From NCBI GenBank assembly GCA_030745755.1, contig JASLOA010000007.1, positions 11,974-75,973 of the forward strand: a stretch of DNA of 64,000 nucleotides, read 5' to 3'. The notes below the pieces were generated by a model that made no database searches, was not told where the DNA came from, and was given only the letters and a program-made list of their open reading frames with translations. Origin of the DNA: Kiritimatiellia bacterium (lineage in GTDB: Bacteria; Verrucomicrobiota; Kiritimatiellia; UBA8416; JABMPJ01). The position numbers and the translations under genes are program-made. Positions 57,900 through 60,130 of this stretch are shown here, piece by piece. The first letter of the stretch is position 1. Every line of letters begins with the position of its first letter.

Positions 57900-58790
57900 A
57901 TGCACATACTGAACATCGGATCGGTCAATATCGACCATGTCTATATGGTCGAGCATTTCGTGCGACCGGGCGAAACACTTTCCAGCACGCAACATGATAC
58001 ATTTGCGGGGGGCAAGGGATTCAACCAATCGATTGCCCTTGCTCGGGCTGGCGCGCCGACTCGACATGCAGGAAGAGTCGGCCATGATGCTGCATGGTTG
58101 CTTGACCGTCTGAGTGGCCAAGGCATCGACATCACAGGAATCAAGATGGCGGATTGCTCAACAGGCCACGCCATTATCCAAGTTGTTCCTACAGGTGAGA
58201 ACGCGATTGTGCTTCATAGCGGAGCAAACGCCTCGGTAACCGCTGAGGATATAGCTCAGGCTGTGTTAAATTCGTCCGATGAGGATATTCTACTCGTTCA
58301 GAACGAAACAAGTTCAGTGACCGAGGCTATCCGGGCGGGAAAAAACAAAGGCCTGAAAATCGTGTTCAATCCGGCCCCAATGTCACCTGCTGTACGCGAC
58401 TATCCTCTGCATGATGTAGACCTCTTTATCCTCAATGAGACCGAAGCCGAAGGCTTAACAGGCCAGAGCACGCCGGAGGATGTGCATGCAGCCATGCTGG
58501 CCTCGTTTCCCGGTTCGGCTACGGTACTTACGATGGGTCGGAAAGGCGCAGCCTATTTAGACGCCGGTGGAATCATCACTCATCCCGCCATGGATGTTCA
58601 GGCTGTAGATACCACCGCGGCAGGAGACACGTTCATAGGCTACTTTCTCTCCGAGATGATACGGACAGGAAAACCGGACAGAGCTCTGGCACTGGGGTGT
58701 CATGCTGCAGCCATTTGTGTGACTCGCCCGGGCGCATCTGACTCAATCCCATTTTTAGAAGAAGTCATTACCGAAATGAAAACCAGATGA
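57900..58790 (+). CDS. ribokinase / PfkB-family sugar kinase
   Basis: GGKGFNQSIA (GG motif), NETEAEGL, and DTTAAGDTF (anion hole). Confidence 0.8.
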   Translation: MHILNIGSVNIDHVYMVEHFVRPGETLSSTQHDTFAGGKGFNQSIALARAGAPTRHAGRVGHDAAWLLDRLSGQGIDITGIKMADCSTGHAIIQVVPTGENAIVLHSGANASVTAEDIAQAVLNSSDEDILLVQNETSSVTEAIRAGKNKGLKIVFNPAPMSPAVRDYPLHDVDLFILNETEAEGLTGQSTPEDVHAAMLASFPGSATVLTMGRKGAAYLDAGGIITHPAMDVQAVDTTAAGDTFIGYFLSEMIRTGKPDRALALGCHAAAICVTRPGASDSIPFLEEVITEMKTR

Positions 58791-60130
58791 AACACTACCC
58801 AAAGATACCTGAATACGGAAAATTGATCGACCATCTTAAGCTTCAGGCACAGCTGAAAGCTGAATACGGTGCAAAGGGCATCAGCCAACCCCTTGCCAAG
58901 GCGGAACGCGCCTTGAAAGATGCGGTTCGTGAACTGCAAGCGCTACCCATAGACGAAACACTTGCCAAGCGGGAGCCTAATGATCTTGCCAAGATAAAGA
59001 GTCTGCGCCCCACAGGGATCCGGCGAATCTGGGAGACATTCGACCGAGCTGCATACGGCGACCGGCTTGAGGGCGCCCTGCTGGGACGGATGGCTGGGTG
59101 TACACTGGGCGCGCCTGTAGAGTTCTGGCCAATTGTGAAAATGAGGGAACTGGCGGAAGAGAACGGTGATGCGTTTCCGCCTACCGATTACTGGTCTAGG
59201 GTTCCTGATCCGAAACAGAAACGATATCAAATGAGCAAACGCGAAGCGTATACACAAAGCTGCATGAAGGGGGTACCCGTCGATGACGACATCATCTTCA
59301 CGCTTCTCGGTCTGCTGATCGCGGAAGACCATGGCCCGACGTTCACTGTCGATGATGTGGGCAGGGCTTGGGTCAAGTACCTGCCCTATGCCTGCACCGC
59401 AGAGGAAGTGGCGCTCAACAACCTGAAGAAGGGCGTATCGGCGAGACTTGCCGGCGAGAGAGATAATCCATACTGCGAATGGATTGGCGCAGACATCCGT
59501 GCCGACCCTTGGGGATACATGGCGCCAGGGTGGCCCGAGCGCGCGGCAGAGATGGCGTATACGGACGCATATATCAGTCACCGACGCCAGGGAATCTACG
59601 GAGAGATGTTCTTCGCCGCCGCTATTGCTGCCGCCTTTGCCGTGGACGATCCCGTTGAGGCCTTGCGAATCGGCCTGTCGGAAATCCCAAAGAATTGCGC
59701 GCTTGCCAAAGCCATGCGCTGGGCTTTGAGGGTATCTCCTGACATCAGGGACTACAAGCAAGCCCGTGCCGCCATGGACAAGAAGTTCAAAGGGATGCAC
59801 GCTGTCCACACAATCAACAATGCTTGCCTGACTATCTGGGGGATCACGATCGGCGGCACCGATTTCACGAAGGTCATCGGTGAGACTGTTGCTATGGGAA
59901 TGGACAATGACTGTACAGCGGCCACCGCCGGCAGCATTGTTGGGGCTGTCGTCGGCAAGCAAGGCATTCCGGAGCACTGGTATAGGAACTTCAACAATAA
60001 GATCCATTCCTATCTTATCGACAATCGTTACTTCTCGATCAGCGGAGTTCTAAACCGATTCGAGAAACAGGCAAGAAAGGTCCACAGCCAACAACGCGTT
60101 GCACAGCGACGCGGTAAATCGCGCGCGTGA
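58787..60130 (+). CDS. ADP-ribosylglycohydrolase (ARH/DraG) family protein
   Basis: GALLGRMAGCTLGAPVEF near the N-terminus. C-terminal GMDNDCTAATAGSIVGAVVG matches the binuclear-metal-site motifs. ATGA overlap with the kinase. Ends inside a family-C attC. Confidence 0.75.
   Translation: MKHYPKIPEYGKLIDHLKLQAQLKAEYGAKGISQPLAKAERALKDAVRELQALPIDETLAKREPNDLAKIKSLRPTGIRRIWETFDRAAYGDRLEGALLGRMAGCTLGAPVEFWPIVKMRELAEENGDAFPPTDYWSRVPDPKQKRYQMSKREAYTQSCMKGVPVDDDIIFTLLGLLIAEDHGPTFTVDDVGRAWVKYLPYACTAEEVALNNLKKGVSARLAGERDNPYCEWIGADIRADPWGYMAPGWPERAAEMAYTDAYISHRRQGIYGEMFFAAAIAAAFAVDDPVEALRIGLSEIPKNCALAKAMRWALRVSPDIRDYKQARAAMDKKFKGMHAVHTINNACLTIWGITIGGTDFTKVIGETVAMGMDNDCTAATAGSIVGAVVGKQGIPEHWYRNFNNKIHSYLIDNRYFSISGVLNRFEKQARKVHSQQRVAQRRGKSRA

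Follow-up and report, generated by a model that had tools for sequence, protein, structure and literature searches.

A ribokinase-like gene and an ADP-ribosylglycohydrolase-fold gene very probably packaged as one cassette of a Kiritimatiellia chromosomal integron

The stretch of DNA analysed here (64,000 nucleotides, referred to below as the window; contig JASLOA010000007.1 of assembly GCA_030745755.1, from a Kiritimatiellia bacterium) carries two overlapping genes, one encoding a PfkB-family, ribokinase-like kinase and the other a protein with the fold of the ADP-ribosylglycohydrolases (ARH). A sequence-only reading of the window had described them as an ATGA-coupled PfkB and ARH pair at 57900-60130, and the coordinates of both open reading frames (ORFs), their Pfam matches and the overlap between them are all confirmed by our analysis. 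The features of the locus, in window coordinates, are as follows.

57900-58790, plus strand: gene for the PfkB ribokinase-like kinase, ATG to TGA, 296 aa, PF00294
58787-60130, plus strand: gene for the ARH-fold hydrolase, ATG to TGA, 447 aa, PF03747
58787-58790, plus strand: ATGA start/stop overlap of the PfkB and ARH genes, 4 nt ('cagATGAaac')
57809-57887, plus strand: attC of the preceding RelE-like/HTH toxin-antitoxin cassette; R'' CGCGAAC at 57809-57815, R' GTTGGCT at 57881-57887
60086-60145, plus strand: the pair's own attC, of sulfatase type; R'' AGCCAAC at 60086-60092, R' GTTGGGT at 60139-60145
57882-60139, plus strand: the very probable two-gene cassette, 2258 bp, starting with TTGGCT and ending on the G of GTTGGGT

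The TTG at 57882, which the ORF-calling program lists as a start, belongs to the integron core site and is not the start codon of the kinase gene. The four-nucleotide ATGA overlap suggests, as a feature of the sequence, that translation of the ARH gene is coupled to that of the kinase gene. At the other end, the ARH stop codon (60128-60130) lies inside the attC, such that the final ~14 residues of the protein are encoded by the recombination site itself, and this tail resembles the C-terminal tail of a sulfatase with the same attC (46% identity over 24 aa by tblastn; 60086-60130 against 54229-54300). The ARH and sulfatase ORFs run into their recombination sites rather than ending before them. 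An exact copy of the cassette protein is annotated in the Kiritimatiellia metagenome-assembled genome (MAG) GCA_030749005.1, and several metagenome assemblies of that organism contain it too.

Integron recombination cuts between the G and the TT of the core site, and the cassette is therefore delimited to 57882-60139, with its left boundary at the crossover point G|TT (57881/57882). A circularised cassette requires its R'' box to be paired with a G plus its own first six bases; here, all seven positions of the R'' box AGCCAAC pair with G plus TTGGCT, and by the same logic the R'' of the neighbouring toxin-antitoxin cassette (CGCGAAC) matches G plus TTCGCT at six of seven. Sites with a GTTRRRY core and a bottom-strand fold bound the pair on both sides. 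The bottom strand of the left attC (57805-57895) forms an imperfect long hairpin of -25.8 kcal/mol against a shuffle mean of -12.7 (z -6.2), with none of 200 shuffles folding as well, and the corresponding hairpin of the right attC has a free energy of -19.6 kcal/mol (z -1.8). The right-hand site is a member of a five-copy repeat family (D2), the other copies of which, at 40891, 45493, 54263 and 61759, follow sulfatase cassettes, and no attC is found between the PfkB and ARH genes. A strict attC detector (6/7 complementarity of R'' and R') recovered the right-hand site only, and a relaxed version recovered both sites of this cassette and missed two of five tested regions of the window; because of these misses, the lack of a detector match downstream of other ARH homologues is weak evidence.

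The same edge appears, from sequence alignment, to be shared by the unit in other genomes. In the alignment with the two nearest relatives (loci L012 and L013), the GTTGGCT core is the exact point from which the DNA is similar, and nothing aligns upstream of it, and L012 has kept both GTTGGCT and an AGCCAAC box after its ARH gene. Around the L012 pair and the P0019 homologue (L005), hairpin tests gave no significant result (z -0.3 to -1.8); neither copy is claimed as an intact cassette, and our claim for L012 is limited to the core sequences that it retains. On an unrelated 2.1-Mb contig (L011), a 92%-identical, 5'-truncated ARH remnant retains the same attC. This copy (L011 7400-9090, uncultured bacterium MFD03804.bin.3.367) has neither its first ~97 codons nor a kinase gene, adjoins direct repeats of 'CATAAAGACTACTTCG', and looks like a decayed or rearranged version of the same cassette. 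At the P0019 locus (L005-L008) the ARH gene, 75% identical at the protein level, stands alone with no kinase gene; it is surrounded by small genes and toxin-antitoxin pairs (MazE/PIN, Gp49/HTH, ParE/RHH) in what resembles another cassette array, and the AGCCAAC box after the ARH gene is kept, with attC hairpins that the folding test did not demonstrate. Taken together, the flanking attC sites, the match between R'' and the 5' end and the shared boundary support the earlier proposal that a metabolic pair has been mobilised as one cassette, and the label of sulfatase type given to its attC likewise stands; we hold it to be very probable that the PfkB and ARH genes form a single integron cassette. 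The packaging of an ARH and PfkB module in this manner, with a boundary conserved in other genomes, is new here.

The unit sits within a real chromosomal integron, the integrase gene of which lies at the left edge of a block of low GC content.

27362-28840, minus strand: intI, integron integrase ORF, TIGR02249, with Phage_integrase and Phage_int_SAM_4 domains

The product of this ORF scores 431 bits on TIGR02249 (cut-off 265) and thus carries the IntI-specific signature; the integrase match covers residues 180-491, and the true start is probably internal to the called ORF. The low-GC block that follows intI extends over ~33 kb at a GC content of 0.536 against 0.61 in the flanks, the window being at 61% until ~28 kb and again from 62 kb on, and at ~54% between.

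The kinase matches PF00294 with an E-value of 6.6e-47 (160.7 bits against a Pfam threshold of 25.8), which places it within the PfkB family, and its best PDB matches are ribokinases only, with E-values down to 1.8e-44. It is 35% identical to Escherichia coli RbsK, in which the ribose-binding and catalytic residues are N14, D16, G41-G42-K43, N46, E143, the NXXE motif and the GAGD motif with D255. Every RbsK motif that was checked is kept in the alignment: the ribose-contacting NxD (NIDH), GGKGxNQ (GGKGFNQ) and (N)E (as NE(T), in QNET), as well as NXXE (NETEAE) and the catalytic AAGD (AAGDTF). Among 80 metagenomic relatives with 44-64% identity, genes for RbsA-, RbsB- and RbsC-like components of a ribose ABC transporter are neighbours at 15, 12 and 4 loci, respectively, an IU-nucleoside hydrolase gene lies directly downstream at 5 loci, ARH-family genes stand immediately beside the kinase gene in both gene orders at ~9 loci, and sulfatase genes are nearby at a few. 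The usual partner of the kinase thus appears to be a ribose importer in some genomes and a ribose-releasing hydrolase in others. From its sequence and the company of its relatives, we conclude that the enzyme is probably a ribokinase in the functional sense. On five of the metagenome contigs (L094, L097, L098, L100 and L108) the ribokinase relative is followed by an IU-nucleoside hydrolase gene and/or one or two sulfatase genes, with an additional GPH/MFS-type transporter at some; these loci echo the combination of ribokinase and sulfatase genes reported for the rus loci of Bacteroidetes (discussed below) and the co-occurrence of such genes in the integron of the window.

The second protein matches PF03747 with an E-value of 9.2e-49 and has the all-helical ARH fold; other proteins of this fold named in our comparison are MJ1187, ARH3, a chloroplast ARH, the Tri1-type 6dre, DraG, Lmo0067, a Thermus protein and ARH1. 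Its AlphaFold model, built from an alignment of 149 sequences, has a pLDDT of 95 (a single-sequence model with a pLDDT of 36 was discarded), and the sole part of low confidence is the C-terminal tail encoded by the attC. Active-site residues were mapped with HMMER to DraG, with hhalign to YegU, and through the invariant columns of the alignment of 149 homologues. The acidic metal ligands E112, D167, D168, D373 and D375 are invariant in these homologues and align to E28 and D243/D245 of DraG and to the YegU motifs, such that the acidic residues of a binuclear Mg/Mn site, which the sequence-only reading had named among the points to be checked, are present. The hydroxyl ligands are not: Asp166 takes the place of the Thr that precedes the Asp pair, and an invariant Cys376 that of the Thr/Ser after the DxD. 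Furthermore, the first motif reads GC in place of the canonical GD, and a conserved helical extension of ~90 residues with invariant arginines precedes the domain, the invariant arginines of the protein including R74, R79, R238 and R266. In all of these respects the protein differs from DraG, ARH1, ARH3 and Tri1, to which it is only 15-18% identical. No signal peptide was found in the protein sequence, and the protein is therefore expected to be cytoplasmic.

Proteins of this kind make up a sizeable clade of roughly 2800 members; in a set of representatives clustered at 50% identity, 427 clusters belong to it at E <= 1e-30. Identities of 60-83% are found across Kiritimatiellia, Lentisphaerae, Planctomycetota, Verrucomicrobiota, Anaerolineales, Fibrobacterota, Latescibacterota and some Bacillota, and more distant members have DTDS, with a Ser, at the last motif and hold the remaining clade features in common. 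A literature search returned no relevant characterised member of the clade, and none under 'ribofuranosidase'. The definition of this clade by its altered ligand set and its N-terminal extension is, like the packaging of the module, new here; it is a separate, biochemically uncharacterised group, and the kinase falls in the true ribokinase branch. The clade also keeps different company, its partners being ribokinases and sugar-catabolic genes, where those of canonical ARHs are ADP-ribosyltransferases or nitrogenase regulators. This genomic context argues against ADP-ribose as the substrate.

The linkage of the two genes is recurrent. The kinase-ARH pair is as tightly coupled in L012 (1-nt gap) and L013 (8-nt overlap), the proteins of which are ~71% (kinase) and 73-76% (ARH) identical to those of the window, and at the ~9 metagenomic loci mentioned above the ARH genes directly beside ribokinase relatives are more distant paralogues of the same clade. 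Natural fusions also occur among the cluster representatives: P0270 joins an ARH part (38% identical) to a PfkB part (36% identical, with a GGKGANQ motif), P0316 is a second ARH and PfkB fusion, and in P0354 an ARH is fused to an IU-nucleoside hydrolase. Two cultured organisms have the clade in annotated clusters. In Mycolicibacterium arabiense, an ARH gene is clustered with genes for a LacI regulator, a solute-binding protein, two permeases, a ribokinase and a UgpC-type ATPase, and the cluster of Deinococcus aetherius encodes LacI, permeases, a binding protein and a hypothetical protein, followed by an ARH, a ribokinase and another ARH of larger size. The latter (L131) is 700 aa long and follows the ribokinase; two ARH genes likewise stand in tandem at L024 (5833-9293; 704 aa and 432 aa), where the next gene encodes a pectate-lyase-like protein that has an F5/8 type C domain. 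An AraC-family regulator gene, divergently transcribed, and a gene for a URO-D-like protein (uroporphyrinogen decarboxylase/methyltransferase fold) are the ARH neighbours at L127, L010, L015, L017, L018, L021, L033, L035, L036, L039, L040 and one more locus, and in the cluster representative P0245 a B12-binding radical-SAM enzyme is fused to an ARH domain.

Several known systems bear comparison with the cassette. In the yegTUV operon of E. coli, the ARH-family YegU and the PfkB kinase YegV are accompanied by YegT, a nucleoside-type MFS transporter, under repression by GgaR/YegW, and the function of the system is still unassigned (PMC10819704). As in the cassette, the ARH-family and PfkB genes are translationally coupled in one operon. 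However, the identities to the cassette proteins are only 22% (ARH) and 24% (kinase), and orthology with YegU and YegV was rejected on these values; YegV has no ribokinase GGKGxNQ motif, YegU lacks the N-terminal extension and keeps the canonical ligands, TDD and DTDT, and the operon, which is no cassette, comes with a transporter and a regulator. Closer to the cassette are the ARHs of M. arabiense plasmid pJCM18538 and D. aetherius plasmid pDAETH-1, which belong to the same clade (31-33% identity over 87% of the protein) and share with the cassette ARH the N-terminal extension and the GC..G.P.E, DDD and NPxxEWIGAxIR motifs, although the second metal motif is DTDS rather than DNDC. Their clusters likewise include an annotated ribokinase gene, but unlike the cassette they have uptake and regulator genes and do not belong to integrons. 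The rus polysaccharide utilization loci of Bacteroidetes combine one or more ribokinases with an enzyme that releases ribose and that differs between loci, being either a nucleoside hydrolase or an ADP-ribosylglycohydrolase, and some include aryl sulfatases (bioRxiv 10.1101/574913); the likeness is one of gene content, namely a ribokinase with a ribose-releasing enzyme, and these loci differ from the cassette in being SusC/D-based and in having dedicated regulators. A likeness of gene content also holds for SERP2216-2218 of the staphylococcal cassette chromosome (SCC)/vSe1 element, which encode a ribokinase, a permease and an ADP-ribosylglycohydrolase (PMC3637587): both enzymes are again on a mobile element, with the differences that the permease gene lies between them and that the element is not an integron.

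We consider it reasonably probable that the cassette encodes a cytoplasmic riboside hydrolase and a ribokinase that together scavenge ribose. A compound with a ribosyl group, its 5'-OH free, would be imported by the host; the ARH-fold enzyme, acting as a metal-dependent cytoplasmic glycosidase, would cleave the C1 linkage of the ribosyl group and release free D-ribose, and the PfkB ribokinase would convert this to ribose-5-phosphate for entry into the pentose-phosphate pathway. The cassette has no transporter gene and no detectable promoter, and uptake would therefore be supplied by the host and expression by read-through from upstream cassettes or from the integron's cassette promoter, Pc. 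The gene structures, the boundaries, the folds, the conserved catalytic residues and the recurrent linkage are observed, and upon them the model sets a putative order of reactions, ribose as the presumed product and a likely kind of substrate. Since the kinase appears to be one for free ribose, the substrate would be a non-phosphorylated riboside or ribosyl-glycoside, and not ADP-ribose. Hydrolysis of ADP-ribosylated targets yields ADP-ribose, not free ribose, and because a ribokinase could presumably not use that product, a role in ADP-ribose metabolism is unlikely. The suggestion that the pair processes ADP-ribose or ADP-ribosylated substrates accordingly loses ground, as it leaves the ribokinase no obvious role, while the alternative suggestion of a nucleoside salvage module, taken as salvage of nucleosides or ribosides, is of the options offered the one closest to the evidence. 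The model parallels, by analogy, the nucleoside hydrolase and ribokinase pairs found among the kinase relatives as well as the rus systems, and the annotation of the ABC transporters in the Mycolicibacterium and Deinococcus clusters, with their two permeases and an ATPase of UgpC type, suggests that the substrate is more like a glycoside than a nucleoside.

A number of points weigh against this model. To our knowledge, neither a member of the ARH clade nor an ARH and ribokinase module has a demonstrated substrate. The kinase does not reach the equivalog cut-offs of the NCBIfam ribokinase models (it scores 234.5 bits on TIGR02152, where 299.65 are needed, and 211.8 on NF008353, where 341 are), and although ribokinase is by far its best NCBIfam model, it is outside the curated equivalog. 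The replacement of both canonical Thr ligands of the ARH protein, by Asp166 and Cys376, could mean a different chemistry. The survey of genomic context that the sequence-only reading had called for did find ARH and PfkB pairs to be recurrent, in both orders and as fusions, yet a kinase gene adjoins the ARH gene in only 3 of the 33 genomes found with the latter, and the commonest ARH neighbours are the AraC regulator and URO-D-like protein, or glycoside hydrolases and sulfatases. With the kinase rarely adjacent and other neighbours commoner, the main role of the ARH may be other than ribose release. The homologues are common chromosomal genes, none with a known role; housekeeping genes of known role, which that reading had named as grounds for giving up its proposal, were not among them. 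Last, the cassette is ~29 kb from attI, and a scan upstream of the kinase gene for the sigma-70 consensus, which may not apply to this phylum, found no promoter-like site; its expression is putative.

The region 27362-61830 is a large sedentary chromosomal integron of a Kiritimatiellia MAG, with its cassettes on the plus strand, and it has at least five distinct families of attC-type repeats of 50-80 nt. Many small toxin-antitoxin pairs are present (HicA/HicAB, two to three MazEF, Phd/PIN, PIN_3, Gp49/HTH and RelE-like/HTH), along with carbohydrate-active cassettes that hold a GH39-like gene (42152-43927), a beta-helix gene (37410-39092) and sulfatase genes, whole or fragmentary, of which there are at least five. 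Three sulfatase cassettes are fragmentary (45932-46696, 53242-54303 and 61596-61799): in two of them the Sulfatase domain is reduced to its C-terminal part (profile positions 235-300 and 144-300), and the third has only the first 67 residues, after which the ORF enters the attC. The array ends with the attC copy at 61759-61828, which no longer has its GTT core. These fragments and the coreless last attC suggest cassette decay or illegitimate recombination. Among the largest unannotated cassettes of the array is one taken up by a single ORF of 506 aa (55550-57070), for which a Pfam search gave no match at E <= 0.01.

The order of the two reactions might be the reverse of that proposed. The PfkB enzyme would then phosphorylate the 5'-OH of the intact riboside, and the ARH would cleave the 5-phosphoribosyl linkage to give ribose-5-phosphate directly, a route for which the pseudouridine kinase and glycosidase YeiC/YeiN of pseudouridine catabolism provide the analogue. 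Such an order fits the usual binding by ARH enzymes of a ribose that bears a 5''-diphosphate, the invariant arginines R74, R79, R238 and R266 could hold an anionic group, and the kinase gene leads in the window, in L012 and in L013. The kinase, however, retains the free-ribose-binding motifs of RbsK, its nearest relatives are found in rbs-type transporter operons and beside nucleoside hydrolases that release free ribose, and many other pairs, like the fusions, have the opposite gene order; we regard the kinase-first route as unlikely. An equally unlikely account takes its cue from the company kept by the cassette, and holds the ARH to be a glycosidase acting upon a non-ribose linkage of sulfated or complex polysaccharides, with the kinase acting on the sugar so released, or on a related furanose; the pair would then be one of the glycan-degrading cassettes of the integron. 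Its attC type is common to the sulfatase cassettes, and GH39-like and beta-helix cassettes are in the array; ARH homologues elsewhere lie beside GH2, sulfatase and heparinase II/III genes, beside GH116, beside GH106/GH26/GH51 and beside a pectate-lyase-like gene, ribokinase relatives also adjoin sulfatases, and in the rus loci ribokinases are found together with ARH genes and aryl sulfatases (bioRxiv 10.1101/574913). Against this stand the predicted cytoplasmic location of the ARH, the specifically ribokinase-like character of the kinase, and the ARH fusions to ribokinase and to IU-nucleoside hydrolase, which point to ribosides; neighbouring independent cassettes, moreover, need not share a pathway.

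Many integron cassettes are anti-phage systems, and a function in conflict also has to be considered, whereby the ARH would reverse ADP-ribosylation by a toxin or phage enzyme in the manner of a Tri1- or DarG-like antidote (the earlier suggestion of a counter to ADP-ribosylating toxins is of this kind), or the cassette would itself be an anti-phage system. We find this very improbable. Neither an ADP-ribosyltransferase, in the cassette or among its neighbours, nor another regulated target was found, and there is no specific model match, with 30.6 bits on the Tri1 model against a cut-off of 490 and 33.1 on the DraG model against 337. The identity of 60-80% across phyla is unlike that of fast-evolving immunity proteins, and the homologues are found instead in carbohydrate and ribose catabolic loci, such as operons of LacI, ABC-transporter and ribokinase genes. 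As no match was obtained in PADLOC and no relative in IMG/VR viral contigs, a defence or anti-defence reading was rejected.

A further and rather doubtful reading is that the clade has no role in ADP-ribose metabolism and represents a novel class of ribofuranosidases of the cytoplasm, with a metal centre that is altered and contains Cys, which integrons would spread together with a ribokinase among glycan-degrading bacteria of the Planctomycetes-Verrucomicrobia-Chlamydiae (PVC) group. Its marks would be the N-terminal extension and the GC..G.P.E, DDD and DNDC motifs, held in ~430 clusters at 50% identity. ARH chemistry acts on alpha-linked ribose, and for this reason a possible substrate is an alpha-riboside that is refractory to ordinary nucleoside hydrolases. 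Such a compound could be a ribosyl-glycoside of a sulfated or otherwise decorated glycan, or a riboside derived from alpha-ribazole or a cobamide, the latter only hinted at by the recurrent URO-D-like neighbours and the one fusion to a B12-binding radical-SAM enzyme.

Neighbouring ARH and ribokinase genes are widespread, being found in yegUV, the staphylococcal SCC element, the rus loci and actinobacterial and Deinococcus plasmids, and the pairing as such is already on record. Should the function prove to be a simple, nucleoside-like salvage of ribose, the finding would be an ordinary one. The cassette is nonetheless a minimal, two-enzyme version of the system, from a highly conserved clade and with a high-confidence structural model, and as such a convenient entry to the ribose compound that is consumed. 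It also indicates that the cargo of a chromosomal integron outside the Proteobacteria can extend beyond genes for resistance, toxin-antitoxin systems and defence to a multi-gene catabolic unit beside sulfatase and glycosidase cassettes.

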